38,219 bases of DNA from an uncultured Opitutia bacterium. Lineage in GTDB: Bacteria > Verrucomicrobiota > Verrucomicrobiia > Opitutales > JABJCN01. The notes under the pieces were generated by a model that was not told where the DNA came from, searched no databases, and worked only from the letters and a program-made list of their open reading frames with translations. Made by a program: the position numbers and the translations under genes. The stretch covers positions 1 through 38,219 of the forward strand of contig CAJWWL010000001.1 of assembly GCA_913048125.1 (NCBI GenBank). Reading direction: 5' to 3'. This document shows positions 2,229-36,587 of this stretch, piece by piece; within the stretch, counting starts at the first letter, position 1, and the number at the start of each line of letters is the position of its first letter.

Positions 2229-2235
2229 AGAGTTA

Positions 2236-3723: not shown

Positions 3724-3754
3724 TTGGAAATTTGGAAAAAATAACTCTTGAGGT

Positions 3755-5269: not shown

Positions 5270-5371
5270 GTTTTATGAGCAGACGAGTTTTGTGGATTCC
5301 TTGATTTTGATATAGGTCGACAGATCTTTGGCTAGGGATTTTTGTCTCGGATCGTGAGAATTAGGTGATCT

Positions 5372-6589
5372 TCAGCCGAGATTCTTGAGCAGGGCTTGAG
5401 CACAAGCTTCGGAGAACTCAGGTGCGTTGATTTCTGTATCAACCTCAATCATTTCAATACTTGGAGACAGGTTTACCTTAATAGCATTGAACAAAGCTTG
5501 ATCTGCATCTGGATCATAAAATGGCTGCCCTGACGCGCTGATAATGCTGATTGCCTTAGTGGGCAGTAAAACTGTGACTGGACACTTGTAGGCATTTACT
5601 TTCTCCGCGAGAATCCTACCGAGTTGCGCGCATTCCTCAGGCGTAGTTCGCATAAGCGTAACCTGCGGATTGTGAACGTAGAAATTACGCCCTTCGAATT
5701 GACTGGGGACGGTTTCCCTCCCTCCGAAGTTAACCATATCTAGGCAACCTGGTGTAACAATAGCCGGCACTCCAAATTTTCCCGCGGCTTCCAATCGAGT
5801 TGAGCCAGCACTCAGGACTCCGCCGCATAATTCATCTGCCCACTCAGTCGTGGTGACATCAAGCACACCGGCAATTAATCCTTCAGAGATCAAAGACTCC
5901 ATCGTCTTACCTCCTGTTCCTGTTGCATGAAATACTAGGACTTCGTAGCCGGAATCTTCTAAAATAGTTTTAGCTGCTTCGATACATTCTGTGGTGTTTC
6001 CAAACATGCTCGCTGCTATGATGGGACGATCCTTAATATCTTTTGCGACTTTGGTGCGGACCATTCCACAGATGGCTCCTGCCGCCTGACTAAAAATCAC
6101 CCGAGAAATACTGTTCAGCCCCGAAACATCCACGACACTTGGTATCATGGTGATATCCTTTGTTCCCACATAGTGCGCAGTGTTGCCACTCGCTAGGGTC
6201 GAAACCATCACTTTCGGGAACCCAACTGGAAGTCCTCGCATGGCTGCTGTTCCGATAGCGGTGCCTCCGCCCCCTCCCAAGGATAGAATGCCATGAATCT
6301 TTCCTTCAGCAGCCAATCTTGATACCAGCTTGGGAGCCGCTTCAGTCATTGCAGTTACGCACTCGCCACGATCATTACGTTGTTGGATTTCTGCGAGGTC
6401 GATCCTGCCTGCCGAAGCAACCTCCTCACGGGTTACGTCCGGTTCTATTGTTGGGGCGGAACCAGTTCCTACATCTATGAGCAATGTGGAAAGGCCAGAG
6501 TCTGATATAAGCTTTGCAGCATAAGCGTGTTCATCGCCCTTGGTATCAAGGGTTCCTAAGATTGCTACAGTCTTACTGGGCTTGGTCAT
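5372..6589 (-). CDS. UPF0261 / Tm-1-like ATP-binding domain protein; cytoplasmic, function unknown
   Basis: 405 aa with no signal peptide. The N-terminus MTKPSKTVAILGTLDTKGDEHAY and the internal LSLGGGGGT and HATGTGG glycine-rich loops match my memory of the UPF0261 family (the N-terminal half of plant Tm-1). Confidence 0.65.
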   Translation of the reverse strand: MTKPSKTVAILGTLDTKGDEHAYAAKLISDSGLSTLLIDVGTGSAPTIEPDVTREEVASAGRIDLAEIQQRNDRGECVTAMTEAAPKLVSRLAAEGKIHGILSLGGGGGTAIGTAAMRGLPVGFPKVMVSTLASGNTAHYVGTKDITMIPSVVDVSGLNSISRVIFSQAAGAICGMVRTKVAKDIKDRPIIAASMFGNTTECIEAAKTILEDSGYEVLVFHATGTGGKTMESLISEGLIAGVLDVTTTEWADELCGGVLSAGSTRLEAAGKFGVPAIVTPGCLDMVNFGGRETVPSQFEGRNFYVHNPQVTLMRTTPEECAQLGRILAEKVNAYKCPVTVLLPTKAISIISASGQPFYDPDADQALFNAIKVNLSPSIEMIEVDTEINAPEFSEACAQALLKNLG

Positions 6590-6627
6590 AAATTAGAACT
6601 AAACAAAGACTGAGTCTCGGCGACTCT

Positions 6628-7965
6628 TCACTGATTCTTTTTATTTCTGGTAGATCTTGGCGCTAATTCTTCAGTGTATTCGTTTTCAATTGCCATAAAC
6701 TCCTCCAATAGCTTTTGGAGCCGTTTGCGGTGAGCGTCATGCCTTGGGTCAGTTGTTACTTTTTCGCTGTAGCGTTCGTGATCTGAAGTAATTGGTATGT
6801 CATAAAGTTTCCCGTCCTGATTGAGTCGAAAACGTTCATCCCGAACGAAGTAACCTTTCCCAAAGTTGATGAGGAGGTGCTCGCGACCTTTGCCTTTTGT
6901 GCCGGTAAGATTATGCGAAAGGTTAAGGCCATCGACCTTACGGGTTAGCTCTAGACCTGCAAGGGCGTGAATGGAGGGCAGCACATCGACAAGGCAAAAG
7001 AAATCCTCACGTATGCCAGGTTGAATTGTGCCAGGCCACCAAGCTAGGAGAGGCACGCGACTGCCTGCCTCGGTCATCGAGCCTTTTCCGCCCTTTAGCT
7101 TGAGTCCGGGTAGGTGACTGGTGATGCTTTTATGTGTGCCGTTGTCGCCTGTAAACAGGACGAGTGTATTCTCGTCTATACCGTGTTTTTTTAGGCGTTT
7201 GAGAATACTCCCAACAATGTAATCCATGTAGGTGATCATATGCCCAAAGGCCATGGTTTGCTTATCAAGGTCCTTCGTGTATTTCGTGTAGGCCAGTTTC
7301 TTGAGCTTAGGCGGGTGAATAAACGGTGAGTGGACAAGAGCCATAGGGTAGTAGAGTAAAAAGCTCTCATTCTTTTTTCGGTCGATGAAGTCCAATGCAA
7401 ATTTATGGAAGTAGTCTGGCCCAAACTCATCCTTTTCGCCGTTGGTAATTTCTCCTTTGGAGTAAATTTGAGGCCCGTAATATCGGCTGGATTTTTTGCC
7501 GGCATGGACCCACGTCCACATGCAATATTCGTCAAACCCGTGTTCGATGGGCTGATTTGGGAATTCATCAAATTTACCCAGTTGCCATTTTCCAGTAATG
7601 GCTGTGGCGTATCCAGCATCGCGGAAGTCGTGGCCAAAAGTTCGGATGCTAGCTGGCATTCGTACACCTTTGTCTTTCCCAATCAAAGAGCGGAATCCGG
7701 TTCGGGGTGGATAAAGCCCACTCATGATCATCACTCGAGTCGGAGTGCAGAGCGGCGTAGCGTAGGCATTGTTGAACCGGGCGCCTTCATCCGCCATTCG
7801 ATCTAGGTGTGGAGTCGTGTATATGGTGCTACCATAGCAAGCCAATCCCTCCGCCCCGATGTCATCTGCCATGATTATGATGACATTAGGCTTTTTCTTA
7901 GCCCAAGTGCAGTGAGATGAACCTATAAAAAGTGCTAAAAGAAAAACAAATGATGAATGTTTCAT
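6628..7965 (-). CDS. Sulfatase (arylsulfatase A-like)
   Basis: 445 aa with a signal peptide. Motifs are PNVIIIMADDIG, the FGly motif C-T-P-T-R (PLCTPTRVMIMSG), TGKWQLG, FTGDNGTH and KGGKGSMTEAGSRVPL. Confidence 0.9.
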   Translation of the reverse strand: MKHSSFVFLLALFIGSSHCTWAKKKPNVIIIMADDIGAEGLACYGSTIYTTPHLDRMADEGARFNNAYATPLCTPTRVMIMSGLYPPRTGFRSLIGKDKGVRMPASIRTFGHDFRDAGYATAITGKWQLGKFDEFPNQPIEHGFDEYCMWTWVHAGKKSSRYYGPQIYSKGEITNGEKDEFGPDYFHKFALDFIDRKKNESFLLYYPMALVHSPFIHPPKLKKLAYTKYTKDLDKQTMAFGHMITYMDYIVGSILKRLKKHGIDENTLVLFTGDNGTHKSITSHLPGLKLKGGKGSMTEAGSRVPLLAWWPGTIQPGIREDFFCLVDVLPSIHALAGLELTRKVDGLNLSHNLTGTKGKGREHLLINFGKGYFVRDERFRLNQDGKLYDIPITSDHERYSEKVTTDPRHDAHRKRLQKLLEEFMAIENEYTEELAPRSTRNKKNQ

Positions 7966-8081
7966 TATGGAAATACGAGGTCTTAGGATCGGATAAATGA
8001 TTTCCTAAAGGCGAGCCAAAGATGATAAGCTCAGGGCTACTGCAAAGAGTAACCAATCAAGGGGAGACTTGTTTTGAATTC

Positions 8082-9368
8082 TCAAGCACCTCTAGTGAAA
8101 AGGCGATCGAGTGTCCCGGTTGATTTGCTGTATTCTTGCTGTTGCACACCAAAGTGCTGAATAATTGAGAGTAAGCAGTTGGCGTGAGGAGGCTGATCAG
8201 GGTAGTCTAGGAGTTTACCTGTATTGAGCCCAGTTTGTTTGCCGCCAGCCATGACAAGCGGAAGGTTTGCCCCGAGGTGTTTACCACCGTGACTGAGTCC
8301 CGATCCAAAAAGGAGCACTGTGTGGTCGAAGACGCTGGTACCATCATGTTCTTTGAGGGATTTCATTTTCTCAATAGCTAAGCCGAATTGGTGTACGTAC
8401 CAAGTGTTGGCTATGTTGAATTCTTCGGTTAGCTTCTTGTTGCGTTCGAAGTGTGAGGACCAGTGAAAGTCAGCTTTGAGACCAAGGAAATCATGAATGC
8501 GACGGCTACTTTCTAACGCCATTATGCAGGAGGCAACTCGGGTTGCATCTGTCCAGAATGCTAGTGCGACTAGATCTACCATGGTCTTCATCTTGGAGGG
8601 AAAGTCATCGAGCTGGATCACTTCGCTCCCGACTTTTTCCAAATGAGGTCTGGATGCACCATCTTGTTCCTGTTTCTGAATGGCCACTTCTACTTCTCGA
8701 ATAGAATCTAAGTAGTTGGATAGAACGGTCTTGTCTGCAGTGCTTGCTTTCTTCATCAGGGAGGATGCAGGTTCCTTGACCGCATCAAGAATGCTGCTCA
8801 GTTCATTGCGGACGCTAGTGTCCCCGAGTCCACGAAACAGTCGATCGAAGGCAAACTGAGCATTACGTTCCACAAAAAGCCCGCGCCCCTCCTTGTCGTA
8901 AGATAGGCTATTCAATGTCGTGGATCTTACATCCACGGGTTCAGCAGAGAGTTGGAAGGATTTGAATTGAGTCTCGGTCCCCACATGGTCTGCGATGACT
9001 TGGTCGAAAGAGTAGCCAGGGTTACGAGTCTGGTGTCCAGTCATGAATAGTGGCATGGCACCGTAGTGGTCTCCCTTGGGCTGATTGCTTACATTAGAAA
9101 GGATGGCAATGTCCTTCTTGTATTTGGCCAAAGGTTCTAGGTTTTTTGAGAGCGTGAAGTCGTCTTCGTTTCCAGTAGCTTGCCAGTTGGCCGGATCGAT
9201 CCCATTTCCTTTGTGGAAGACGCCTAATCTGAGTGGGATGGTGTTTTTAGTTTTTGTCGTTCCATGGCAGATTGCCGGTCCCATAATTTCCAATGCGGGT
9301 AAACCCATACACACCCCAGTGCCCTTGAGAAAACTTCTTCTCGGTATCAGATAGTTGTTTTGCTTCAT
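8082..9368 (-). CDS. DUF1552-like protein with a twin-arginine signal (module A, small subunit)
   Basis: 428 aa with the Tat-type leader IPRRSFLKGTGVCMGLPALE. It shares S-x-DQ, TDATRV, H-W-S-S-H-F and NLPLVMAGG blocks with the ORFs at 11847 and 31114. Its ATG overlaps the upstream stop codon in the ATGA at 9365-9368. Confidence 0.8.
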   Translation of the reverse strand: MKQNNYLIPRRSFLKGTGVCMGLPALEIMGPAICHGTTKTKNTIPLRLGVFHKGNGIDPANWQATGNEDDFTLSKNLEPLAKYKKDIAILSNVSNQPKGDHYGAMPLFMTGHQTRNPGYSFDQVIADHVGTETQFKSFQLSAEPVDVRSTTLNSLSYDKEGRGLFVERNAQFAFDRLFRGLGDTSVRNELSSILDAVKEPASSLMKKASTADKTVLSNYLDSIREVEVAIQKQEQDGASRPHLEKVGSEVIQLDDFPSKMKTMVDLVALAFWTDATRVASCIMALESSRRIHDFLGLKADFHWSSHFERNKKLTEEFNIANTWYVHQFGLAIEKMKSLKEHDGTSVFDHTVLLFGSGLSHGGKHLGANLPLVMAGGKQTGLNTGKLLDYPDQPPHANCLLSIIQHFGVQQQEYSKSTGTLDRLFTRGA

Positions 9369-11707
9369 GGATGTTCCTTGTTTCGGAATGGGTAGCTCAG
9401 TACGACTTCTTCTAAAAGTTTGTTCATACTGTAATCATGTTTAGCGATGGATTCTTTAATTCTTCTTATGGCGGGACGGTCTGTGGGGAGAACTTTTCTT
9501 CCAACTGCGTAGGCTAGAACCTTCTTTACAGCATTATCGATTACCTTGTCACGATATTCGTTAACAAGCAACTCTTTCAAATCTGCTGGCCTTGTGAAGC
9601 CCTTTCCGTTGGGGAGTTTGTAAGCTGGTTCGATTTCTTTATGCTCACCGCCAAGCAAAGAAACTACACCATAAGAGTTATTGCCTCCATCGCCCTTAAC
9701 CTCTGCCGTCAACTTCCATCCCTCAGTTGGTGCTTCCGTTGGTAGGTTGAACTTCCAGATATTTTTATGGGTTGCGTGTCCAGTGTACCCAAAATGTTTA
9801 TCCTCCAGATCAATAAGACTAGATTCCAATCGAACGTTTCTAATGTCCAATCGGTGACTTCCCTTTGTATACTGAAACTGCACTTCGTTGATTTTACCTG
9901 GTTCTAACTCCAATTTTAAATCCCAAGACCGATCTTCATATTTTCTTGGAATGACCTTTGGGTCCCATCTAAAGAGTTCCTTTCCAGTAATTCTGACCTT
10001 TGGTGCGCTCCGTTGGATTCCTAGTTGATCATAGATTTCAAGACCAAAACCCACGGGGTCGATGTATTTATGGCAGGATGCACAACCCTTTTGTGAGGAA
10101 TGGAGTTTAAGGATTTCATTCGGACTTAAATTGAGTTTTTGTTCCTTCGCTTTTTTTTGAGATTCCTCAAGGTCTGGGACATTTTCTGGGATCTCAAAAT
10201 GAATCCCAAGAATCCGCTCCATAACCCAAGCACCTCGTCGGATTGGGCTGGTTCGGTTTTCGGTAGATGTCGCACTCAGAGTAGAGCCAAGTGTAAGAAA
10301 GCCTCCTCGATTAGGGTCATCCAGCATCTTCAAGCTTAAAGGCAGATGCTTGTATTCATAATTTCCTTCGTAAATTTTTCGATCCTCGTTCCTGTAATGG
10401 ATGTTAACAGCAGGTAGAGCGTTATCGACCTCCATTGAATCTTCCTTCAGTGGTATGCGATAGATGTTGGTCTGGTGCTTGTTGATGAACATCCAGTCAG
10501 CATCTATCAGACGAAATATCGGCTGGTCATAGCGAATGATACTATCAAAAAACAACAAGGCTTCCTCATACTGAGTCCGGTAATAACCAGCCATTCTATC
10601 ACTCCTTTTATTGACTGCGCTCTTGCGGCGAAGGTGCTTATAGTCGAACCATTCGCCACCAAGGTTTTCTGCAAGTGCAACTCGTTTGGGATCTGCCAAA
10701 AGTCGGTGAAATTGTTTTTTTAAAACTTCTGGGCGAACGAGTTCTCCGTTATCTGCTAAATTCTTTAATTCATCATCTGGAGGGCTTGACCAGAGAAAAT
10801 ACGAAAGTCTTATTGCCAATTCACCAGCGGGTAGGGGAGACAGGCCAGAACTTACCTCTTCGAGCCTGTATAGAAACATTGGGGATAAAAGCATCGCCAA
10901 GAAAGATGACTTTATCGATTCGTATTCTGTTCGTCCATTCTCCCGCATATTCTCGTAAACAGTTAGAAATCTTTTTAACTCGTCTCCTTTGATGCTTCGT
11001 CGGAATGCTGAAGTGCCAAACCCTCTCAAGATTTCCTTTGTTGCAGTTGCAGACAAATCGGTAGTGTTTTTCGTGCCAAAAAGTCTCTCTCGGGCCTCTT
11101 CATCTGAGTCTAGCAAGTTCAGTACGGCTGAAAAGCAACGGGCGTAGGTTTGAAGGTCTACCGACTCTTCGCTCAATGCTGTTGCATCATTGGAAAATCC
11201 AGAAGCGCCACGAATCCCAGCACTGAAGAACTTTTCAATGATTGTCTCCGGTATAACATGCAATCGGCTGTTGGTGACTGTCTGACGGATGTCTAAGTGC
11301 AAAATATCTTCGAGCGTGTTCTGTAGTTCTTCTCGAGTTAGTCGTCTAGGGTGGTTGATACCTGCTCGTTCGATTCCGTTCGGAAGCACGAACTCGTTTT
11401 CAAACCAAGTAGTAAAAGTGGCTACTTGCCCGTTAGAGAGAGATTTCTTGTCTTCGGGAGGCATTTTACGTTCCACGATTGCACGTTCCAATTTCTCCCA
11501 AATTTCTACGTTCGGACTTTCGTCAAAACGATCCAGTAGAGCTTCAATGTTTATGCCGCCTTTGGGTTTTTCTCCATAATGGCAGTCAATACAGTGACTT
11601 TCAAGTAGTTCACTGACCACTTCGAAGCTTACACTAGCCATCAAAGCACCTGGCCAGAGTCCTAAAGAGAAAAAGCCCGCAATTTGTTTATATCTTTTGC
11701 ACCCCAT
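9365..11707 (-). CDS. Secreted DUF1592/DUF1588/DUF1585-type protein with an N-terminal PSCyt-like CxxCH (module A, large subunit)
   Basis: 780 aa. Motifs in order are CIDCHYGEKPKGGINIE, MPPEDKK, RRLTREELQNTL, RLSYFLWSSPPDDEL, NRGGFLTLGSTLSATS...RTSPIRRGAWVMERILG, and a second CxxCH (CASCHKYIDPVGFGLEIYD). It carries a module-specific insertion of about 127 aa before the C-terminal domain. Confidence 0.8.
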   Translation of the reverse strand: MGCKRYKQIAGFFSLGLWPGALMASVSFEVVSELLESHCIDCHYGEKPKGGINIEALLDRFDESPNVEIWEKLERAIVERKMPPEDKKSLSNGQVATFTTWFENEFVLPNGIERAGINHPRRLTREELQNTLEDILHLDIRQTVTNSRLHVIPETIIEKFFSAGIRGASGFSNDATALSEESVDLQTYARCFSAVLNLLDSDEEARERLFGTKNTTDLSATATKEILRGFGTSAFRRSIKGDELKRFLTVYENMRENGRTEYESIKSSFLAMLLSPMFLYRLEEVSSGLSPLPAGELAIRLSYFLWSSPPDDELKNLADNGELVRPEVLKKQFHRLLADPKRVALAENLGGEWFDYKHLRRKSAVNKRSDRMAGYYRTQYEEALLFFDSIIRYDQPIFRLIDADWMFINKHQTNIYRIPLKEDSMEVDNALPAVNIHYRNEDRKIYEGNYEYKHLPLSLKMLDDPNRGGFLTLGSTLSATSTENRTSPIRRGAWVMERILGIHFEIPENVPDLEESQKKAKEQKLNLSPNEILKLHSSQKGCASCHKYIDPVGFGLEIYDQLGIQRSAPKVRITGKELFRWDPKVIPRKYEDRSWDLKLELEPGKINEVQFQYTKGSHRLDIRNVRLESSLIDLEDKHFGYTGHATHKNIWKFNLPTEAPTEGWKLTAEVKGDGGNNSYGVVSLLGGEHKEIEPAYKLPNGKGFTRPADLKELLVNEYRDKVIDNAVKKVLAYAVGRKVLPTDRPAIRRIKESIAKHDYSMNKLLEEVVLSYPFRNKEHP

Positions 11708-11846
11708 TGTATCTCATTTCAAGATAGGCCAAACTAAAAACAATTTTGGTAATTTAAAAGGTGGCAGTGATCCCAATGTAGCCAATTTCAGGGTCAATCC
11801 TGCTCTTCTTTGGCTGTCCTCCAAGTTATTCTAAGAGCCGTTTGAC

Positions 11847-13211
11847 TTAGGCTTTGATTGCATCGATTTGCTTGGTTGCAATGCCAATCGGGCGGTCCAA
11901 GGGTACACCTACGCAGTTAAGTAGTGTTGTAAGAAGGTCTGCCTGGTTACCTTTGGTGTCAGAGATGAACCGGCCAGTTTTAATGCTGCCTCCACCTTTC
12001 CCTGCGAGAATAAAGGGAAGGTTGTCACGGCGGTGCTTGTTTCCGTCTTCGAGGCCAGAACCCCACATCATGATGCAGTTATCTAGTAGAGTGCCATTAC
12101 CCTCCTTTAGAGAATGCATTTTCTTCACCATGTAGGCGTATTGGTCGACGTTGAATTTATTGATGGCTGCTACTTTGCGGATTTTTTCCTTATCGCTTCC
12201 ATAGTGAGTTTGCGAGTGATGCTCATTGGAGAAGCCCAGTTCTGGATAGGAGGCACCATTAGGCCGCGAACCGACATATGTGCTGACCCGCGTGGTATCA
12301 GTCTGGAAAGCTAGAACGGTCAGGTCACACATGACTTTCATGTATTCGCTGCGCTTGTCGCCTTCGGGAATCTTCACTTCGATAGGCGCCGAATCGGTGG
12401 CGAATCTTTTTGTAGGTGCGACACCATTCTTTTCCAAGGCTGCTTCTTGCTGGCGATTTTCGATAGCTGCAATATGGCGTTCTACTGAGCGCACGCTGTC
12501 GAGGTATTCATCGAGTTTTTGTTGATCAACTTTGGCGAGGGTTTTACGGAGGTCTCTGGCGCCACCTAGTACACGGTCAAGCATTTGCCGGTCTAGTGGG
12601 TTGGTTTGGCTTACGAGGCCATCCTTGCCGCGTTTTCCGAAAAGTCGGTTTAGAACGTTTCTGGGGTCAGTCTCGGCAGGTACGGGTTGTGTGGGAGATC
12701 GGTAACTGCAGTGATTATAATATCCCTCATGTAAACCTTCTTGATTTTCCTTCCAAGTCTGGGGCATGGTGGCCAGTTCCAGAGAGGGTAGCAATGTTTG
12801 CGCACCAACATAGTTGGCCATGATCTGGTCAGCCGAAATTGATATGTTAATGCGGCCACGTGAGTCAGCGTCCGGTAAACGACCAGTTAGCCAGGTCGAT
12901 AGCTCTAAAGCATGTGGGGCACCCTTAAATGGATGAATAGGTACTCCGGAAATGCCTTTCATCATTAGGCACTGGTCCATGACAGGTTGCAGTGACTGGA
13001 TTATGGATGGTGGTGAATTGAGGAATTGATCCTGATTTTTTGGCCAGAATTGATCCATGATTACCCCATGCGGCATATACATGAAAGCCATTCTTACTGG
13101 AGGCTTGGACAGATCTGACGCCGAAGCCAGAGAGTCCATGAATGGCAAGGCTAAGGAAAGCCCTGAACCTTTTAAGAAGGTGCGACGATCAATGGCTGTG
13201 TCTCTTTTCAT
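11847..13211 (-). CDS. DUF1552-like protein with a twin-arginine signal (module B, small subunit)
   Basis: 454 aa with the leader [20 protein letters not shown]. Shared blocks are [29 protein letters not shown] and [12 protein letters not shown]. It lies 22 bp downstream of its large partner. Confidence 0.8.
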
Positions 13212-13233
13212 TCAAATGTAATATCCATTGTGC

Positions 13234-15165
13234 TCATCCTTTTACTCTACGATGTGTAAAAAGATAACTAGTGACTACCTCACTGATGATTGTACGGAAA
13301 CTGTAACTATCCTTCGCGATTTTTTTCATTAATTGATCAATCACAATATAATCATAGCCCTCCAGCTGTCTGCCCAATGCGTAAGCCATCAGTCTCTCGG
13401 TGAGATTTCGAGCAAGATCAGCTTCTCGGTCAGCGAGAAGATTCTTCAGTTGAGCGGGTGTGGAGAAAGTTTTGCCATCGGGAAGCTTGCCTGCGGAATC
13501 AATCACTAGTCCCTGATTGTTTTTTTCTCTCCAGCGGCCAATTGCATCAAAATTCTCCAATCCAAAACCAATAGGGTCTAGGATTTTGTGGCAATTTCGA
13601 CAGGTAGCTTCTGATTGATGAAGCTCAGTTCTTTGCCGAAGGGTTAAGTTGGTAATCTCCTTGTGACCCTGGTCCTCGAGTTCAGGAATGTCTGGAGGAG
13701 GAGGGGGGACGCTCTCCCCAAGAATTCTTTCAAGTACCCAGACTCCTCTGACTACAGGGCTGGTTCTGTTTGGAAAGGAGGTGGTTGTCAATGTAGCCGG
13801 CATAGTCAAAATACCTCCTCGGTTCGGGTTCTTCATTTTTACCCTTCTCATCTTTATTCCCTTGATGGGTTGATCTAGTCCGTAAATACGGGCAAGAGGC
13901 TCGTTTAAAAATGTGTAATTGCTATTCACAAATCGAATCACGCTTTTATCCTCGGCAATTATGCTTTCAAAAAGCATCCGGGCTTCTTCGATCATTGCTG
14001 CGCGTAAGGTAGGCGTCATCTCTGGAAACAGTTTAGGGTCAATGACCTTGCTTTTCAGACTCTCTAATCGAAGCCACTGGGCTCCAAATCCGTCAAATAG
14101 TGCCTTCGAACGTGCGTCCTCTAGCATCCGGGTGACCTGTGACTTTAAAACTGCTTTTTTTTGAAGTTCTCCTTTGTCTGCCAAGGCAGCCAATTCGGCA
14201 TCGGGAGGTGCCGACCACAGAAGATACGAAAGGCGAGAAGCCAGCTGGTAGCTGTCTAGCAGTGTGATCGGTTCTTTAGATTCCGGCTTTTCGGCTGGTG
14301 TAATGAAGAGAAACTGCGGAGAGACGAGAATGGCTTTTAAGACATAGCCCAAAGAGGCTGTGTGCGATAGATTGTTGTTTCGGGCTAGATCATAGATGTC
14401 GATTAGGACTTCAAGTTCGGCATCGGTAGCTGGCCGCCTGTAGGCATCTCTTGCGAGCGACCTCGCAACACTGCGGACAACCTTCTTCGAATCTGTACCT
14501 GTTGGATGTGTTTCACCAAAGAGCCGCTTTTGTGTTGCTGTGGGCTGCTTTCCTTTAGGTGCAACAATTTGCTCCACTACCTTATTGGCAATACCAAGGA
14601 ATAACTCTGACTGTAATGAGGAAATTGAATTAAGAAACCCTTCTCCCTCAACTTCGTCTGGAAGGCTTGCAGCAATGTCTGTATCAACCTCATAAAGTGC
14701 GTGCAGAGTGTTGGCGTATTCCGTTTTTGTAAGCCGCCGAATGACAAACGGCCCAGGGTCTCGAGGAGCCAAATACTTGAGTTTGCCGATCCATTCGATG
14801 AATTGAAGGCGTTCCTCATCCGTTGGCTTCTTGGAGGAGTCTTCTGGCGGCATGTCGTGTACTTTGACATTTGCCATCGCCTTCTTCCAGTGCATCGAAG
14901 CCGATTCACCAGTAGGGTTGTTCAGTGCATTTTGCAGGTTGATTCCTGCCTTGGCTCGACTGCCGTGGCAACGCGTACAGTATTTTTTGACGAAAGGTCC
15001 GACCTTTTCTTTCAGAATCTTCTGGGCATCTGCTTTCAGCGCTGGGGCGTCCTTACTTTGGTCTGCAAGATTTGCAAGGCAGGGTTGAGGCATGAATCCC
15101 AAAACCAGCGCAAAGCTGTAGATCTGTATTTTTGGGAGCTCTTTCAAAAATCCGTATCCTTTCAT
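13234..15165 (-). CDS. Secreted DUF1592/DUF1588/DUF1585-type protein with an N-terminal PSCyt-like CxxCH (module B, large subunit)
   Basis: I place the start at the internal ATG (15165-15163), giving [31 protein letters not shown] as a signal peptide. The track start at 15264 would overlap the upstream gene, which ends at 15225. Motifs are [69 protein letters not shown]...[29 protein letters not shown] and [19 protein letters not shown]. Confidence 0.8.
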
Positions 15166-15224
15166 GATTCCAATCCTATGATAGAAATATCGAAAAGGGT
15201 ACAAATTTCCTAGATGTGATTTCC

Positions 15225-16217
15225 TCAGGGAAGCTTCTTGGTGTGTTGCGAGTATTTTTGCCAATGCTTGTTGATCGCATTAGAGTTAGCTTCTGCTGAC
15301 GTAATTAGATATCGATACTGGGAGATGTACTGAGTGCTGGGTTTGATGCTGAATTGCCCCTCAACCATAGGTGCGAAGCAGAAGTATGGTTTGTTGGGAT
15401 GAAGTCGGACGTGCTGAGGCGCTCTGAAGTTCTTGGGGTGACCAAACACTGTAACTGAGGCATGCTGACCGTCCAGTTTGCCACCCATAGAAACCCAGTT
15501 TGGCCGGGAGTGGTTACCTTCTATTCGCCCTTTTCCCTCGCTTGTGAGAAAACTGAAGTCGTTTGCGTTTTTGCCAGACTCTCCCTTGCTTTTTAACCAC
15601 TCAGAAGCTCCACGAAGAGCCATTCCCCCATAGTGATACTTCTCCAGTATCATTGGTTTATCCGTTGCACACGTTTGGATGCTTTTCAGATCAAAGAGAA
15701 AGTAATCTTCTGGAGTTTGGTGAATGGTTACTGTCCAAATTTCGTGAAGTGCATCAGTACGTTCATTTCCTTTGCCCACTACAAACGCATGTTTAACGCT
15801 GAAAGAAACACTTTCTTTTTTGCGTTTGAGGCTAAGAACTTCTCTATGTTCGATCGTTCCAAGCTGCTTAGCCTGATTCCAGAACTCTACTTTTTTACCG
15901 TCGAATTTAGCGCGCGTCCAAGCAAAGAAAAGTGCGTGCTGGTGCGGATGGTCGAGAGGGAAGTCCCCTGTAACTTCCTGTCCTTTTGGAGAATACACAG
16001 GATGGATGTATCCACTGCGCCGGAAGTGTTCGGGCATTCCCTCTGGAACCGGATTTTCCTTTTTGACATATTCCAATACTGGCTTGTCTCGAAGGGTGAC
16101 GCGGATCACCTCATCCGTTTCTAATAGTTGTAAATCTATTTTCGCAGAAGTCTCTGCAAAACAAAACATCCAGACTGTAGCCCATAAGGTATATATTATT
16201 CGACCATAACTGCGCAT
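15225..16217 (-). CDS. DUF6807 (PmoA-like, PF14100-type) secreted protein; function unknown
   Basis: The track start at 16253 is a TTG. The first ATG (16217-16215) gives [25 protein letters not shown], a signal peptide. Family-typical blocks are [58 protein letters not shown] and [26 protein letters not shown]. Confidence 0.65.
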
Positions 16218-16260
16218 ATTTCCAATGAGTAAGCTATCTGTGTTTGTCGGCAAGCGCTGT

Positions 16261-17439
16261 TTACAGCTTCTCTAGTGCATTGCCACGTTCCTTCAATGGT
16301 ATATCTACGGCAGCACCCATTTGGCGGTGTGACTCGAAGACTCCACAAATCATTTCTACCGTCATGCCTCCTTCCTCGAGATTGCAGAGTGGTTGGCGAT
16401 CTTCTTTAACGGCCTCAATCAGGTCTGTTGCGGGTGTGATATGATTTTGTACCGCATGTATGGCGGCAAGGTTTGGTTCTTCAGCACCAGGACCTCCTGT
16501 TGTGAAGGGAACCCATGGGCGAGACCCTGATGTTGGCCCAAAGGGATTGCCAGGTACCCAGTAGGCAAGGGGTTGGCGATCAGCATGTATTGTAATAATG
16601 CCCTTGCTGCCAACGAGGTGTAAGCCAAAGCCTAGGTTCTGCGTGCCATCATTGGCAATCGAATCAAAGTAGGCAATCATACCTTCCTCCATTTCATATC
16701 GGGCATGTATGGAATTACCAGCCAGTGGCCCAAGTCCTTCATTGCCATCCCTCACATGGGTAGCAGTAACCGGTTGTCCATTCTGAAACATTCTTGCGGA
16801 GCAGGTTCTTGGAGTTCCTCCAAAGTAATGAATCAGATTCAGCACATGCGAACCAAGTACCCATAAATCTTCTCCGCCACCTCGACGATCACCCTTACCT
16901 CGTGCTCTAATTTCTAACAGATTTCCAAGGTGGCCATCAGCTATGAATTTGTCGATCACCCTAAGCATTGGGTGCCAACGATTACGATGCGCGATGGCGA
17001 TTTTAGTACCATGTTTGTTACAAGCTCTGGCAAGAGAATCGACCTCGGCGGGTGTGCGCACAAAAGGCTTTTCGATATAGATTCCTCGAGCCCCTGACTC
17101 TATAGCTGCGAGTGCCATGTCATGGTGTTGATCTGCATGACGTGGACAAACGGCTACGATATCAAGTTTCTCTTTCTCAAGCATCTCGTGATAATCCGTA
17201 AAGCCGTTAGAGGTCTTTAATCTTTTGCAGGCCTTGGCCAAACCGCTCTCATCTGGATCGGCCACAGCTACAATCTCTGTCTCTTCAAGCTTCAACCATA
17301 CAGTATCTAGTTTATGCCCATAATTACCTCTGCCCGTGTGACCGATGACGCCAACACTTAGTTTTCTTGGTCGATCCAAGGCGAGTGCTGAAGTAGCGAC
17401 AGTGGCACTTCCAGCTGCGAGTAGAGCGCGCCGATTCAT
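16261..17439 (-). CDS. Gfo/Idh/MocA-family oxidoreductase with a Tat signal (periplasmic)
   Basis: 392 aa with the leader MNRRALLAAGSATVATSALA. It has a Rossmann N-terminus (VGVIGHTGRGNYGHKL), the EKP block (IYIEKPF) and the typical C-terminal alpha/beta domain. Confidence 0.85.
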   Translation of the reverse strand: MNRRALLAAGSATVATSALALDRPRKLSVGVIGHTGRGNYGHKLDTVWLKLEETEIVAVADPDESGLAKACKRLKTSNGFTDYHEMLEKEKLDIVAVCPRHADQHHDMALAAIESGARGIYIEKPFVRTPAEVDSLARACNKHGTKIAIAHRNRWHPMLRVIDKFIADGHLGNLLEIRARGKGDRRGGGEDLWVLGSHVLNLIHYFGGTPRTCSARMFQNGQPVTATHVRDGNEGLGPLAGNSIHARYEMEEGMIAYFDSIANDGTQNLGFGLHLVGSKGIITIHADRQPLAYWVPGNPFGPTSGSRPWVPFTTGGPGAEEPNLAAIHAVQNHITPATDLIEAVKEDRQPLCNLEEGGMTVEMICGVFESHRQMGAAVDIPLKERGNALEKL

Positions 17440-17469
17440 GCTTTGATTTAAATGAAGATTATAAGGTGC

Positions 17470-19104: not shown

Positions 19105-19256
19105 ATTCGAGAAGTTGTTGGGTTCCTATTCCTGGGTCAAGTGAAGGATAGATGACCATGACTTACAGAATTTAACTGTAAGTTGGTGAATGTTTATTTA
19201 ACGAGAAGAAAGGTAAGAGAAGATAAGTTGGCTCTAAGTAAACCTGAGCAACTTTT

Positions 19257-20267: not shown

Positions 20268-20430
20268 ATCGATTACCAAGCCCCAGAACGCTAGGGATGT
20301 AAATATATAATCCTGGCGGAATAGATATTCAAGGTGGGCTACAGTTTCATTTCTGCATTCTTTATTCAATTTCGGGGACAATGTTATCGACCCTATTTTG
20401 CCTCGATGATTTAGCTTTCTCTACAAAATC

Positions 20431-23593: not shown

Positions 23594-23597
23594 CGAG

Positions 23598-31000: not shown

Positions 31001-31119
31001 CTATCCAGATATCTTGGATAGGCGCTAGCTTGTCTCATCCAAGACCAATCAGGCTCAGCCTTGAAAGTTGCGTCGTCAATTGTGACGAGTTTTTCTTGGA
31101 TAGCTCTGGAAGACTATCC
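31001..31119. promoter_or_regulatory. Cluster of CTATCCA / TGGATAG half-sites in the intergenic region upstream of the DUF4832-like gene (candidate operator)
   Basis: CTATCCA (31001-31007), a 7-nt spacer, then TGGATAG (31015-21). TCTTGGATAG recurs at 31094-31103 and is followed after 10 nt by CTATCC (31114-19). CATCCAAG at 31036-43 is a related copy. I did not compute statistical support. Confidence 0.25.
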
Positions 31120-32424
31120 CACTCCAAGCAACTCAGGTAGTATACCCGTACTATGGCTGAAATTCTCAATCGGTACACCGGCTTGCTGAAGGAGGGTAAG
31201 CCAGTAGTTCGCTAGGGGGGTATCTTCTTGAGGAAGTACAATGTGCCTCCCGTGCTTGATTTCCTTAGCTCCACCACCCGAAAGAAGAGCAGGGACATTT
31301 TTCAACTCATGACCAGATCTGATATTGGTGCCATAGCTCACGATGCACTGATCGTACAGTCGGCTTCCATCTAGGTCTTTGGCCTCCTTGAGACGGTCTA
31401 GGAAGTGGGCGAAGAGCGAGGTGCACTTTAGGTCGCGCTGGCGAGAAGCTTCAGTGCGAGGTTGGGAGAAGCCATAATGGCTCAAGGAATGGGCTTTTAG
31501 TTTAACTCCCATACCAGAGAGCAGAGAGCAGACTGGTAGCCTGTAGGTGACGACTCGAGTGGCATCGGTCTGTAAGGCAATCAGCATCATGTCGTAGTTT
31601 AGCTTTATCGCATCTTCTCCACTAACACCTTCATCGGGGCCATCGAATGGGGCTTTGGGTTTGGGGACATCTGCCCATTTCGCCTGACGCTCAAGGCCAA
31701 GTTCGACTTGTCGTACGCCAGTGAAGTACTCGTCCAGTTTCTCTTGGTCTCCTTTGCTGAGTTTTCGCTTCATGCCAGAGCCGTTCACCCTGACAACATC
31801 CAGAACACTTTGTTTCTTTTTCAACTGACTGTAAATTTTTGCAGGGTCATCCTTGGGACCTGCAAATAGTGTTCGGTATAGATCGATGGGGCGGTTTATG
31901 CCTGGGATTGGATTACCAGAGTCATCCCAAGCGAGAGAAAGGCCTTGGCCATGGCCCGAATTCTGCCCGCCATCCGGTTCCTTTGCTGATAGGGTTAGGG
32001 TAGGGAAGCGTGTCTCTGGTCCAAGGTTTTTCCCTGCAATCTGGTCGCAAGAGATGGAGTTGTGAAAGCGTTTTCCGGGGGTTCCACTAACGTTGGCCCC
32101 AGTAAGGTAGGAAACACTACCGCCATGGGGATCAGTTGCGCCATGGTTTGACATGTTGGCAACCATTGTGATGTCGTCCTGATGCCGTTTAAGGGGAGCA
32201 AGTCCCTCAGTGAGACCGATTTCTGCGAAGCGGCCGGCTTTTTTGGGATAGAAGGTATCTTTGGTAAAACCAAAACCACCGCCTAGAAAAATCATTCGTT
32301 TGGGAGGGGCTTTGCGAAGGGTAGCGGCTTTAGCAAAGGTTTCTAGAAAAGGGAGGACAAGTACAGCGCTTCCATTTCTAATGAAAGAGCGCCGTGCATA
32401 GGAGTCGGTGAAAAATGTACTCAT
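31114..32424 (-). CDS. DUF1552-like protein with a twin-arginine signal (module C, small subunit)
   Basis: 436 aa with the leader YARRSFIRNGSAVLVLPFLE. Shared blocks are SCDQIAGKNLG, LQTDATRVVT, AHSLSHY and NVPALLSGGGA. It lies 12 bp downstream of its large partner. Confidence 0.8.
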   Translation of the reverse strand: MSTFFTDSYARRSFIRNGSAVLVLPFLETFAKAATLRKAPPKRMIFLGGGFGFTKDTFYPKKAGRFAEIGLTEGLAPLKRHQDDITMVANMSNHGATDPHGGSVSYLTGANVSGTPGKRFHNSISCDQIAGKNLGPETRFPTLTLSAKEPDGGQNSGHGQGLSLAWDDSGNPIPGINRPIDLYRTLFAGPKDDPAKIYSQLKKKQSVLDVVRVNGSGMKRKLSKGDQEKLDEYFTGVRQVELGLERQAKWADVPKPKAPFDGPDEGVSGEDAIKLNYDMMLIALQTDATRVVTYRLPVCSLLSGMGVKLKAHSLSHYGFSQPRTEASRQRDLKCTSLFAHFLDRLKEAKDLDGSRLYDQCIVSYGTNIRSGHELKNVPALLSGGGAKEIKHGRHIVLPQEDTPLANYWLTLLQQAGVPIENFSHSTGILPELLGVG

Positions 32425-32436
32425 TGAAATGTGTAA

Positions 32437-35202
32437 TTATTTGGTACGGAATAGGGGACTGAGAGCAATTTCACGAATCATTGACCCAACACGGTAACTA
32501 TCTGGCTTTAGTTTAGTCAGAAGGGATTCTACATCATCAGCGTCTGAGAATTCTACCGTCTGACCCAACGCGTAAGCCAGTAAAGATTCGAGGAGTTCTT
32601 TCGCAAGTTTATCTTCGTAGGTGAGTAGTACTTTCTTCAGCTCAATCACATTTGTGAAGGTAGAACCGTCAGGTAAAGTTCCTCCCGGTTGTATCGGGAC
32701 TGATTTTCGTCCAACATTTTCTTCGTTGCGCCAGCGACCAGTTGTATCGAAGTTTTCCAAGCCGAAACCAACGATATCCATCTTTTTATGGCAAGATGCA
32801 CAAACTGCTTTCTGCTGGTGTAGTTCCACCATTTGACGATTGGTCTTTGGAGAATCTGAAGCGGCACCAAGTTCGGGGACGTTGGGTGGTGGTGGCGCTG
32901 GTGCATCATGTAGCAGTTTTTCCATGATTAGCGCACCACGAATGACAGGGGAGGAGCGCTCTCCGTTGGAGCCAGTAACAAGGAAGGCGGTTTGGGTGAT
33001 CAATCCGCCTCTAGGTGAGTCATCTGGTAAGCTTACTTTTTGGAATTTATCCGTCTTTGTTTCAGGAAAGTCTAAACCATAATGTGCTGCGAGTGCTCCG
33101 TTAACTGTGACGAAGTTCGAGTCAACTAGATTGGCCGCGGGAAGGTTCTCTTTAACCACTAGGGAGAAGAATTCCTTCACCTCTTTCTTGGCGTCTTGTT
33201 GAACACCTTCGTTGAAATAATAGTGTTTCGTGTTATCGATCGTCACGGCATCATAGCGGTCAAATTCTGCCCATTGACTGATGAATCCATCTCCGAGGGC
33301 TTGTGCCTTTGGATCTTTCAACATTCGATCCACCTGTTTGAGGAATATCTCTGGATCATCTAGATCAGCTTTGTAGAGCTCTTCATCTGGAGGACTACTC
33401 CAGAGGAAATATGACAAACGGATAGCTAGCTCATGACTGTTCAGTTCTTTAGTTTTATGAGCTTTAGAGGGATTTGGATTTGGAAGCGCGTTGGTGACCT
33501 TGGACCTACTAATCTCTTCTACGGTCTTTGCCATTTCTGCTTCTTTCATTTTTAGAACCAGCAGAGATCTGGCCAGTTGTAGGTCAAGGTCTTCTCGAAT
33601 CCTGCTTTGCAGTTCTTCACTGTAGTCCGCAAGTCCACCAATTGATTTGTCGCCACCATCTAGAGGCTCTTTCTGGATATTTGATTTGGATTGAGACAGC
33701 GATTCCTCGTTCTCAGTGATGGCTGGTTCTGCTTCATGTAAGAATAGAAAACCCGGAGAAGCTAGGATAATTCCCAGTACATCGATCATGGCATCTCGAT
33801 GATTCATCCCTTCGGCACGATTTTGTTTAAAAATTTCATGCAACCCTGTAATGTACTCAGGCTCAGGAGATTGACGACGAAAGGCTTCAAAAGCGAACTT
33901 CTCAATGAGCTCTTTAATTTTTGAGTCATCCCAGATGTAAGGACTTTTTCCTCCAGTAGCCATCCCTGGAAACAATATATCCTCCCACTTCGACCGAGTT
34001 TTGCCGTAATATGGCCCTTCTATCTCAATCCAATCAATCCAAACGGCGGCTCTAGGATTAGCTCGCTTAGCTGGACCTTGTAGCTTGTTGATATATCCAT
34101 GCATGGAGTTAATCGTGTTATCTGGCATGTTTTCACGAATCTGTATAGACAGCATAGAGCGCCCCATAAGTTGACGAGTTCGCATCTCAACGGTTTGTGG
34201 ATTCTCGGGAGTGCCAGACAACTTGATCGTTCCCAGCGTTCTTTGCCTTCCGCGTACCCGAACGATCCTCCGTAGTTCATTGGGCTCTCCAACGATTCCT
34301 CCATGGATTCTCACAACATATTCTCCACGAATATCAGTATGCATATTTGCTGAAACCCACTTGGCGACATCGGTAATGTACACACCCTTGTCGACCAGTG
34401 GGTATTGCAGATAACTTCTTGGCAGTTCAGCACGGGCATCCCATTGGCGGAAGATTACCTCCATTTCACCTTCATCTCGGAAACCCATCTCTTTCCATGT
34501 GGCGCCTTTTTTCTTGAGTGACATCTTGCGATCCAAATCAGCTAGGTTTTCGCGCATCTTTTTGGTGACTTGGTTTTCTACTTGGGTGCGCTGAGACTTT
34601 ACCGGACGTTTAGCACTCAAGTTGAAGCGGAAGGACTCAAGCGCTATCTTTTTACCAAGCTCGTAATATTTTTCGAAATGCGCAGATGAAAAATACTGCT
34701 CAGCACCCACGTTATCAAAAGTGGCAATTTCTCCATCTTCCGGTATATCGACCAAGGCGACCTCAAAGCCAAACAGGTCACGGATGGTCAATGAATATTC
34801 CCTACGGTTGAGACGCCGCATCTTGATTTCACCACCGTGATCAGTGAAGCGCTTTCGAGCTTGCAACAATGCGCCAGTCAAAGAGTCGAGGACTTCGGAT
34901 AGTTCGTCGTTCGTCGGTTGCTTTTCGTCTTCCGGAGGCATGTCACCTCCGTTGAGTTGATCTAGTGCATCCTGCCACCGCTGTGCCTCATCTACTGTAC
35001 GGACTTTCCAGGCAGCCATATCAAATCTCACTTGGCCCTTCTGTTTATCCGGTCCATGGCAACGGATGCAGTAAGTATCAAGAAACGGCCTAAGCTTCTT
35101 CTCGGGAAAGGCAATTCCTTCTGGTTGGTCTGAGACTGGTGCTGCTGACATGTAGACGCTCGTCAGCGTAGCTATCGTCAAGAGTAATAGTCCGCGTGCC
35201 AT
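32437..35202 (-). CDS. Secreted DUF1592/DUF1588/DUF1585-type protein with an N-terminal PSCyt-like CxxCH (module C, large subunit)
   Basis: I place the start at the internal ATG (35202-35200), giving MARGLLLLTIATLTSVYMSAAP as a signal peptide. Motifs are CIRCHGPDKQKGQVRFD, MPPEDEKQPTNDE, RRLNRREYSLTI, RLSYFLWSSPPDEEL, PRGGLITQTAFL...RSSPVIRGALIMEKLL, PPPPNVPELG and [19 protein letters not shown]. It is the longest of the three, with a charged or coiled-coil-like insertion before the RLSYFLW block. Confidence 0.8.
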   Translation of the reverse strand: MARGLLLLTIATLTSVYMSAAPVSDQPEGIAFPEKKLRPFLDTYCIRCHGPDKQKGQVRFDMAAWKVRTVDEAQRWQDALDQLNGGDMPPEDEKQPTNDELSEVLDSLTGALLQARKRFTDHGGEIKMRRLNRREYSLTIRDLFGFEVALVDIPEDGEIATFDNVGAEQYFSSAHFEKYYELGKKIALESFRFNLSAKRPVKSQRTQVENQVTKKMRENLADLDRKMSLKKKGATWKEMGFRDEGEMEVIFRQWDARAELPRSYLQYPLVDKGVYITDVAKWVSANMHTDIRGEYVVRIHGGIVGEPNELRRIVRVRGRQRTLGTIKLSGTPENPQTVEMRTRQLMGRSMLSIQIRENMPDNTINSMHGYINKLQGPAKRANPRAAVWIDWIEIEGPYYGKTRSKWEDILFPGMATGGKSPYIWDDSKIKELIEKFAFEAFRRQSPEPEYITGLHEIFKQNRAEGMNHRDAMIDVLGIILASPGFLFLHEAEPAITENEESLSQSKSNIQKEPLDGGDKSIGGLADYSEELQSRIREDLDLQLARSLLVLKMKEAEMAKTVEEISRSKVTNALPNPNPSKAHKTKELNSHELAIRLSYFLWSSPPDEELYKADLDDPEIFLKQVDRMLKDPKAQALGDGFISQWAEFDRYDAVTIDNTKHYYFNEGVQQDAKKEVKEFFSLVVKENLPAANLVDSNFVTVNGALAAHYGLDFPETKTDKFQKVSLPDDSPRGGLITQTAFLVTGSNGERSSPVIRGALIMEKLLHDAPAPPPPNVPELGAASDSPKTNRQMVELHQQKAVCASCHKKMDIVGFGLENFDTTGRWRNEENVGRKSVPIQPGGTLPDGSTFTNVIELKKVLLTYEDKLAKELLESLLAYALGQTVEFSDADDVESLLTKLKPDSYRVGSMIREIALSPLFRTK

Positions 35203-35311
35203 ATCAAACAATCGCCTAATTTGATGCTGGAGTTCAAAATCGGTGCACATCGCATCGTGAATGCGATCGATAGCATCAGATACGCCTTAGGAAAGCTAAC
35301 TAGTCAGAAGC

Positions 35312-36250: not shown

Positions 36251-36587
36251 ATCAGCAAATTTGTAGAGCAGTTTATTATAGATTGCGACAAATTTTATCG
36301 GGTTTTGCCTTTTATCAGTCGCAAGATTTATTGATGAATTTCAATTCCCAATAAGCGGGATACAAATTTTCCAATCAGTATTAATTGAAGAAGCCTACTG
36401 CGAGACTATGTCCCTTAAGACATGGCCGAAATCTTGGTCGAGTCGCTTGTGTCCTGATTCTCCTAATTTTCGAGCATTGATACCCATTAGATGATTGATT
36501 TTAGCATGGATTGAAACTGTTTCAGGTCAGAGGCTATTAATTGATCTTGGCCGATTCTACACTCTATGGAAGGAGCGTGAAGGCATC

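Follow-up and report, generated by a model that had tools for sequence, protein, structure and literature searches.

What do pairs of exported proteins, one of them with two CxxCH motifs, do in a locus rich in sulfatases? The question is raised by a stretch of 38,219 nucleotides from an uncultured Opitutia bacterium (contig CAJWWL010000001.1), the whole of which is called the window here. Its minus strand carries a run of co-directional genes, and the window contains three gene pairs of one kind (A, B and C), each encoding a large protein of the DUF1592 type and a small protein of the DUF1552 family. A sequence-only reading of this DNA had described pairs A and B, and suggested that they serve the secreted sulfatases by substrate capture, uptake or electron transfer. 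We propose a different answer, to which we give a probability of about 0.5: the pairs form a self-contained periplasmic two-subunit haem-linked metalloenzyme module. The evidence lies in the predicted fold of the small subunit, the invariant motifs of the large one, and the genes that accompany the two in other genomes.

The three gene pairs and their domains

The genes of the three pairs and the CxxCH motifs of their large proteins are as follows.

A_large: 9365..11707 (-), 780 aa, Sec-type leader, Pfam domains PSD3-PSD5-PSD4-PSCyt3-PSD2
A_large CxxCH motifs (motif scan): aa 39 (nt 11579-11593) and aa 542 (nt 10070-10084) (-)
A_small: 8082..9368 (-), 428 aa, DUF1552/HXXSHH, twin-arginine (RR) at nt 9336-9341
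B_large: 13234..15165 (-), 643 aa from the ATG at 15165, Pfam domains PSD3-PSD5-PSD4-PSCyt3-PSD2
B_large CxxCH motifs: aa 63 (nt 14965-14979) and aa 522 (nt 13588-13602) (-), with MPP at aa 105-107
B_small: 11847..13211 (-), 454 aa, DUF1552, RR at nt 13182-13187
C_large: 32437..35250 (-), 937 aa, Pfam domains PSCyt1-PSD3-insert-PSD5-PSD4-PSCyt3-PSD2
C_large CxxCH motifs: aa 61 (nt 35056-35070) and aa 817 (nt 32788-32802) (-)
C_small: 31114..32424 (-), 436 aa, DUF1552, ARRSFIRN leader with RR at nt 32389-32394

The four open reading frames (ORFs) of pairs A and B lie where the sequence-only reading had placed them, and its families, ordered motifs, paired CxxCH and RR leaders were all recovered in these pairs, the families as Pfam matches above gathering score. 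Its count of two pairs was one short, as pair C follows the same plan. The Pfam scan covered window ORFs of at least 150 aa (n = 24); the ORFs 14701-15213 (+) and 15633-16124 (+), which run antisense within B_large and the DUF6807 gene, lay outside it. The start of B_large is taken as the ATG at 15165 because its orthologues measure 643–654 aa.

Within each pair the genes are very close together. The start of A_small overlaps the stop of A_large in a 4-nt ATGA at 9365-9368, and the spacers from large to small gene are 22 bp in pair B and 12 bp in pair C; the first two of these had been given exactly by the earlier reading. It is also correct that the pairs are copies of the same two-gene unit, but they are not a recent duplication. 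Pairwise identities among A, B and C are only 26–28% for the small proteins and 31–39% for the large ones, which marks them out as ancient paralogues.

PSD3 (DUF1587), PSD5 (DUF1595), PSD4 (DUF1592), PSCyt3 (DUF1588) and PSD2 (DUF1585) are present in canonical order, all above gathering score, in A_large, B_large and C_large. PSCyt1 (cut-off 22) is over threshold in C_large alone (31.9), with A_large at 20.7, and the N-terminus of B_large matches Cytochrome_CBB3 at 26.6 against a threshold of 27. Every large protein of the window has two CxxCH motifs, which in A_large and B_large open and close the order CxxCH, MPPED, RRLT, RLSY.LW, NRGG, RTSP, CxxCH with DP.GFGLE. In A_large about 130 aa (aa 565–700) are inserted between PSCyt3 and PSD2, a feature not found in pair B, and C_large has an insert of about 240 aa (aa 204–446) between PSD3 and PSD5; there is also a low-complexity stretch of about 100 aa ahead of PSD4 in C_large. 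The A_large insert might be a binding module. The idea that the two inserts are carbohydrate-binding modules (CBMs) could not be substantiated, since neither has a Pfam match even at an E-value of 10.

The small proteins match PF07586 (DUF1552/HXXSHH) with E-values of 2.6e-61 (A), 3.1e-81 (B) and 1.5e-63 (C), and with 208, 274 and 216 bits respectively against a gathering score of 30, covering profile positions 1–297 of 307 or more. None of the six pair proteins has a model in NCBIfam. In the window copies the HxxSHH motif reads HWSSHF, HSQTHY and HSLSHY, with Phe or Tyr at the last position instead of His; of the other two His residues, H332 opens the motif in B_small and H336 comes after Ser/Thr, and both are invariant among 108 DUF1552 proteins. 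The leaders contain PRRSFLKG in pair A, DRRTFLKG in pair B and ARRSFIRN in pair C, and since the RR motif is followed by a hydrophobic stretch, the small subunits are predicted substrates of the twin-arginine (Tat) pathway.

These domains were defined by Studholme et al. (2004). He et al. (2017, mSphere, PMC5615132) showed that Group III PSCyt3/PSD4 genes adjoin DUF1552 genes, that PSCyt3 and DUF1552 occur in almost 1:1 numbers per genome, with as many as 17 genes for DUF1552 and 71 for DUF1501 in a genome, and that sulfatases are often found beside PSCyt genes, some of whose products have CBM domains; they noted that nothing was known of the function. The pairs described here resemble the Group III module in their identical Pfam order, their adjacency, their counts of about 1:1 and, as in some Verrucomicrobia, the sulfatases nearby. 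There is no essential difference, the window providing new paralogues and three divergent copies within 38 kb. The gene pairing and the sulfatase neighbourhood are thus already published, and the module is known and still uncharacterised: a full-text search of the literature found no functional characterisation later than the papers cited, in agreement with the statement of the sequence-only reading that no function is established.

Folds and conserved residues of the two subunits

A structure for B_small was predicted with AlphaFold2 from an alignment of 108 diverse DUF1552 proteins, 26–42% identical to B_small (pLDDT 86, pTM 0.85). The model has a soluble α/β enzyme-like fold. When it was compared with the PDB using Foldseek, all of the top 50 matches belonged to the alkaline-phosphatase superfamily, the best having an E-value of 9e-6 (LtaS, 4uor), with probabilities of up to 1.0. 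They include LtaS/LtaP, carbohydrate and aryl sulfatases, phosphonate monoester hydrolases and 3lxq. The structural homologues that the sequence-only reading had suggested seeking are therefore found for the small subunit, but not, as described below, for the large one.

Profile alignment leads to the same superfamily. Using hhalign, DUF1552 aligns with DUF1501, represented by neighbouring genes of related loci, with a probability of 98% (E 1.6e-13) over 369 columns. DUF1552 aligns with the window sulfatases with a probability of 80% (E 1.4e-5) over the 100 core columns of the C-terminal part, and DUF1501 aligns with sulfatases in the same C-terminal region with a probability of 94%. Given that hhalign and Foldseek agree, DUF1552 and DUF1501 are seen as sister families on a sulfatase/phosphatase-type scaffold.

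DUF1501 belongs to a sister module, DUF1501 + PSCyt1/PSCyt2/PSD1, described by Kamneva et al. (2012, PMC3542564). The likeness between the two modules extends beyond the homology of their Tat-exported small proteins. Their large partners share the N-terminal PSCyt1 haem domain (hhalign 96%), in both of them the second CxxCH is followed by DP, and DUF1501 pairs often adjoin DUF1552 pairs. In contrast, PSCyt2/PSD1 and PSD3-5-4/PSCyt3/PSD2 are unaligned in hhalign, and the small proteins of the two modules share no more than about 15% identity.

The small subunit shares its α/β core with LtaS, type I sulfatases and phosphonate monoester hydrolases, but differs from them at the site where their chemistry takes place. 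None of the small proteins matches PF00884, and the C/S-x-P/A-x-R signature is absent from the mature A, B and C small proteins, as is a Ser/Thr nucleophile motif. After strand 1 the DUF1552 consensus is P-N/H-G, without the D/E metal ligands of the alkaline-phosphatase superfamily. The lack of a PF00884 match, of the C/S-x-P-x-R motif and of acidic ligands after strand 1 means that DUF1552 proteins are not sulfatases. A metal-binding Asp of sulfatases corresponds to a Ser in DUF1552, a correspondence obtained by chaining two hhalign results. About 52 residues past the strand-1 site there is a conserved His, His100, at the N-terminus of a helix, and an invariant His would then occupy the position at which the superfamily has its nucleophile. 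Further differences from the superfamily are a helical insert of about 90 aa (aa 210–303 of B_small), the predicted Tat export, and an obligate haem-protein neighbour.

In the alignment of 108 DUF1552 proteins, R10, P23, G49, D128, D212, D229, H332, H336 and G404 are invariant, and R9, H100, Q129, D305, T307, R308, D377, H393, P399 and others are at least 90% conserved.

The large subunit was modelled in the same way for B_large, with an alignment built from protein-search matches. The AlphaFold2 model is a compact all-α structure (pLDDT 84, pTM 0.85), and the large subunit is accordingly predicted to be a soluble protein of no membrane-spanning or barrel architecture. With both subunits modelled as soluble, a direct role in uptake, as the sequence-only reading had considered, finds no support. 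Foldseek with this model against the PDB returned noise only (best E-value 0.5, TM-score at most 0.13), and sequence searches of the PDB with both B proteins and their family profiles gave no match. A renewed search for the large protein, with a profile of the three paralogues, added no more than three proteins (P0121-P0123) to the close pair-B orthologues already found.

Both CxxCH motifs of B_large (C63/C66/H67 and C522/C525/H526) are invariant in 77 genome-derived and 123 protein-database relatives. The same relatives all retain M105-P106-P107, H516, R449-G450-G451, D530, G533 and many Arg, Asp and Glu residues; the invariant arginines are R143, R144, R243, R244, R311, R449, R467, R473 and R546. 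M105, the Met of the MPP motif, lies 38 residues past H67 and is a candidate Met haem ligand.

Distribution, pairing and genomic neighbourhood

A phmmer search against 1.84 billion cluster representatives gave 10,878 DUF1552 clusters at 50% identity (E ≤1e-3). No exact copy of B_small is recorded in the contig index. Rhodopirellula baltica has RB9955, a DUF1552 protein of 452 aa that is secreted. Scanning one genome per species, 80 pair-B orthologues were found at 69–88% identity, in Verrucomicrobiota, Planctomycetota and Acidobacteriota. The sequence-only reading had described the families as restricted to the PVC group; this is contradicted by the Acidobacteriota orthologues, in Bryobacteraceae, Solibacteraceae and Terriglobia, which are 70–73% identical. 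Conservation of the B-type small subunit to this extent would be more usual in a core housekeeping protein. It may be added that B_small is nearer to that of marine Planctomycetota (Roseimaritima 78%, Fuerstiella 77%) than to that of freshwater or soil Verrucomicrobiota (Prosthecobacter 73%), with Acidobacteriota reaching 73%; this pattern may reflect either inter-phylum transfer or very strong constraint.

The two genes stay together. At the pair-B orthologous loci the large gene is directly upstream of the small one in 70 of 79 cases, and is separated from it by one intervening gene in 4 more. The predicted gap is at most 30 bp in 61 of 74 pairs, with an overlap in 34. A diverse metagenomic sample (28–40% identity to A_small, except for four orthologues at 71–85%) shows an adjacent large partner on the same strand at 38 of 50 loci, directly upstream in 34 and directly downstream in 4. 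The adjacency, the tight gaps and the gene counts of about 1:1 fit a stoichiometric two-subunit complex, so far as gene arrangement can indicate one. Tandem stacking of two or three divergent pairs is recurrent; three consecutive large-small pairs occur in loci L012 (2-11371) and L090 (2-15524).

An apparent fusion of the large and small genes (L018, 8255-11374) was rejected. In that metagenome-assembled genome the large gene has a frameshift close to its 3′ end, and the true junction is an ATGA overlap as in pair A, so that the locus provides no Rosetta-stone evidence.

The window has a high density of sulfatases, with 7 Pfam-confirmed members of PF00884 in 38 kb, or 1.8 per 10 kb. If the pairs generally served sulfatases, as the sequence-only reading proposed, a similar enrichment should be seen elsewhere, and it is not. 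A sulfatase lies within about 10 kb in only 13 of 79 pair-B orthologous loci (0.18 per 10 kb), and in 7 of 80 diverse family loci (0.10 per 10 kb). The commonest neighbours of the pair-B orthologues are DUF1501 (17 of 80 loci) and PSCyt2/PSD1 (15), followed by sulfatases (14). At these loci the sulfatase density is 0.35 per 10 kb within 2.5 kb of the pair and 0.08–0.15 beyond 5 kb, a trend that comes from small counts in related genomes; in the diverse sample sulfatase density shows no drop with distance.

Individual loci vary in the same way. Three close orthologues (L003, L005 and L006, 86–88% identical) have no sulfatase neighbour, L004 is partly syntenic with the window (sulfatase, GFO, pair B, sulfatase), and one 84% orthologue adjoins genes for a GH18 protein and a carbamoyltransferase. 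A-type orthologues are rare, with four loci at 71% or more, and have no conserved sulfatase adjacency. On this partial test, which compares counts per locus and not a whole-genome background, the sulfatase link is local or lineage-specific and not intrinsic to the module.

Besides the sulfatases the window encodes two PhoD-like proteins and two GFO/IDH/MocA oxidoreductases, as well as DUF6807, ThuA-like, GH42/DUF4832-like and UPF0261 proteins; a further protein combines HEAT repeats with the CxxCH haem domain TIGR02603. SusC/D, TonB receptor, ABC and MFS families are absent among the 24 scanned ORFs, as had been stated. The sulfatases do not flank the pairs as directly as had been described: upstream of pair B come the DUF6807 gene and then a Tat-type GFO/IDH/MocA oxidoreductase, with a sulfatase two genes further on. 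Gaps between genes from 927 to 20381 are at most 152 bp, but that these co-directional genes form an operon is an assumption. A scan for consensus promoters and terminators between 6500 and 17600 gave counts equal to those in shuffled sequence, none being above chance, and therefore has no bearing on operon structure.

Both GFO/IDH/MocA genes, 16261-17439 (-) and 23598-24911 (-), encode twin-arginine leaders (MNRRALLAAG... and MKQLKRRDFIK...), so that the oxidoreductases are probably periplasmic. The first of them leads directly to the DUF6807 gene (15225-16253) and then to pair B, and GFO genes occur near the pair in the related loci L001 and L004 as well. Just upstream of pair C, 35312-38171 (-) encodes the ThuA-like protein and the HEAT-repeat/TIGR02603 protein (36588-38171), the latter being a second kind of haem protein at the locus. 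The TIGR02603 protein and the two oxidoreductases show that the pairs are not the only candidates for electron transfer here, as had been claimed.

The sole plus-strand sulfatase, 20431-21933 (+), has CSTFR where the other six have C-x-P/A-x-R, and thus a non-canonical formylglycine motif. In the ORF list, 22007-23707 and 23598-24911 (-) share 110 nt. Translation of the PhoD-like gene probably begins at a downstream codon, because a signal-peptide-like stretch begins at about aa 39–60 of the TTG-started ORF. The UPF0261 protein (5372-6589 (-)) has no signal peptide, and is encoded amid genes for exported enzymes.

A possible function for the pairs

On the basis of these observations, the following hypothesis can be put forward. 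The first gene would encode a Sec-exported all-α protein of 640–940 aa, with a class-I-like cytochrome c domain (CxxCH ... MPP) at its N-terminus and a second CxxCH in the PSCyt3 region, to which haems would be added in the periplasm. The second gene, usually translationally coupled to the first, would encode a protein of about 430–455 aa with a very divergent alkaline-phosphatase/sulfatase fold, which would fold and probably take up its metal in the cytoplasm before export by Tat. The two would then assemble 1:1 into a periplasmic haem-linked metalloenzyme. Its His/Asp-rich site, with an invariant His in place of the Ser/Thr/formylglycine nucleophile, would act on a small or oligomeric substrate, while the two haems would pass electrons to or from the respiratory chain. 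The paralogues A, B and C would differ in specificity. Pair B, being highly conserved, looks like the core, context-independent version, and pairs A and C, with their extra inserts, may be specialised copies recruited into a sulfatase/oxidoreductase island.

We favour a haem-linked enzyme by analogy, because of the export logic of periplasmic dehydrogenases and the electron-donor role of a Cellvibrio cytochrome. Periplasmic dehydrogenases such as SorAB and SoxCD have a standard layout in which the catalytic subunit is exported by Tat and its cytochrome c partner by Sec. The pairs resemble them in the predicted use of Tat for the cofactor subunit and Sec for the haem c subunit, and in having adjacent, coupled genes; there is no relationship in catalytic fold or in cofactor (Mo, FAD), and no redox cofactor is known for DUF1552. 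Cbp2D of Cellvibrio japonicus (Branch et al., 2021, PMC8981238) contains CBM2, a YceI-like X158, FN3, DUF1587 and the c-type cytochrome domains X183 and X132; of these, X183 has been shown to reduce lytic polysaccharide monooxygenases (LPMOs). Like the large subunits it is a secreted multidomain protein, with DUF1587 (PSD3) and single-CxxCH cytochrome c domains, and it acts as an electron donor to a polysaccharide-active LPMO. However, DUF1587 is the only common domain reported, the paper describes neither a PSD4/PSCyt3/PSD2 core nor a DUF1552 partner, and the window holds no LPMO gene.

Several points weigh against the proposal. The fold match of B_small is remote, with TM-scores of 0.37–0.43 and about 10% identity, and the N-terminal catalytic half of DUF1552 is unaligned with sulfatases in hhalign. 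The placing of His100 at the nucleophile position of the superfamily is inferred from spacing and secondary structure, with no superposition. To our knowledge, no enzyme of the alkaline-phosphatase superfamily is redox-active. In the diverse sample, 12 of 50 DUF1552 genes have no adjacent recognisable partner, and 8 of 50 have none in the whole locus. Among DUF1552 genes that lack a recognisable DUF1592-type neighbour are those of L136, L148, L150 and L159; in L136 (7835-9871) an upstream ORF of 679 aa without a Pfam domain could be a divergent or haem-less partner. Given its many invariant charged residues, the large subunit could also be the catalytic part.

Three other explanations have to be set beside it. 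The presence of three pairs among seven sulfatases, two PhoD-like proteins and two Tat-type GFO oxidoreductases in 38 kb invites the explanation already put forward by the sequence-only reading, that they are accessories of a sulfated-polysaccharide utilisation locus which capture or take up substrate, or supply or remove electrons specifically for the neighbouring secreted sulfatases. The sulfatase-PSCyt adjacency and the CBM domains reported by He et al. (2017) would agree with this, as would a CBM2+DUF1592 protein of Cellvibrio present in a lignocellulose-bound proteome, and the weak local excess of sulfatases at pair-B orthologues. We nevertheless think it rather unlikely. No sulfatase is found within 10 kb at 66 of 79 orthologous and 73 of 80 family loci, nor beside the orthologues of 86–88% identity, and the diverse sample lacks a fall-off with distance; pair-B orthologues of at least 70% identity occur in Acidobacteriota in unrelated contexts; and the commonest neighbours are DUF1501/PSCyt2 pairs, at 15–17 of 80 loci. 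Neither model is membrane-spanning or a barrel, and sulfatases are hydrolases, with no requirement for electrons.

Alternatively, the small subunit might be a member of the alkaline-phosphatase superfamily that carries out hydrolysis or group transfer without redox chemistry, for instance as a phospho- or sulfo-esterase or an LtaS-like transferase, with the large subunit as a binding, scaffold or sensing partner whose haems are structural or regulatory. All its structural neighbours are indeed hydrolases or transferases, the many invariant arginines of the large subunit could bind anionic groups, and there are PhoD-like phosphatases at the locus. This explanation is made doubtful by the small subunits themselves, which lack the canonical nucleophile and C/S-x-P-x-R and have Ser at the metal-binding Asp position, and by the two strictly invariant CxxCH motifs, which would be costly for a purely structural role. 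Finally, the large subunit could be the enzyme, either a novel haem-dependent catalyst of oxidase or peroxidase type or a MauG-like di-haem protein that modifies its partner, with the small subunit as its substrate, chaperone or specificity factor. Its compact and confident model without a solved homologue, and a second CxxCH surrounded by dozens of invariant polar residues, are compatible with this, and since some DUF1552 genes have no recognisable partner, the converse may also hold. It is, however, similar to no known haem enzyme, the idea is pure inference, and we give it very little weight.

In Planctomycetota and Verrucomicrobiota, few gene families of unknown function have expanded as much as these modules. 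What is added here is the fold of the small subunit, its homology to DUF1501, a large subunit without a solved relative, the cross-phylum range of pair B, the weakness of the sulfatase link, and a third pair in the window. Neighbourhood alone is no ground for annotating such pairs as sulfated-glycan accessories. A small subunit with a sulfatase/phosphatase fold but without the usual nucleophile, in a pair B that is 70–88% identical across three phyla in any context, provides a starting point for experiments.

A wider and much more tentative suggestion is that the DUF1552/DUF1592 and DUF1501/PSCyt2 pairs together represent a new class of periplasmic haem-coupled enzymes built on the alkaline-phosphatase/sulfatase scaffold, in which the nucleophile has given way to a His-lined metal site, and which would carry out oxidative chemistry on esterified or decorated sugars or other small substrates, with di-haem electron wiring. 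If true, this would give glycoside hydrolases and sulfatases a redox counterpart, found in three phyla or more and numbering over 10,000 sequence clusters, with a large-subunit fold new to the PDB.

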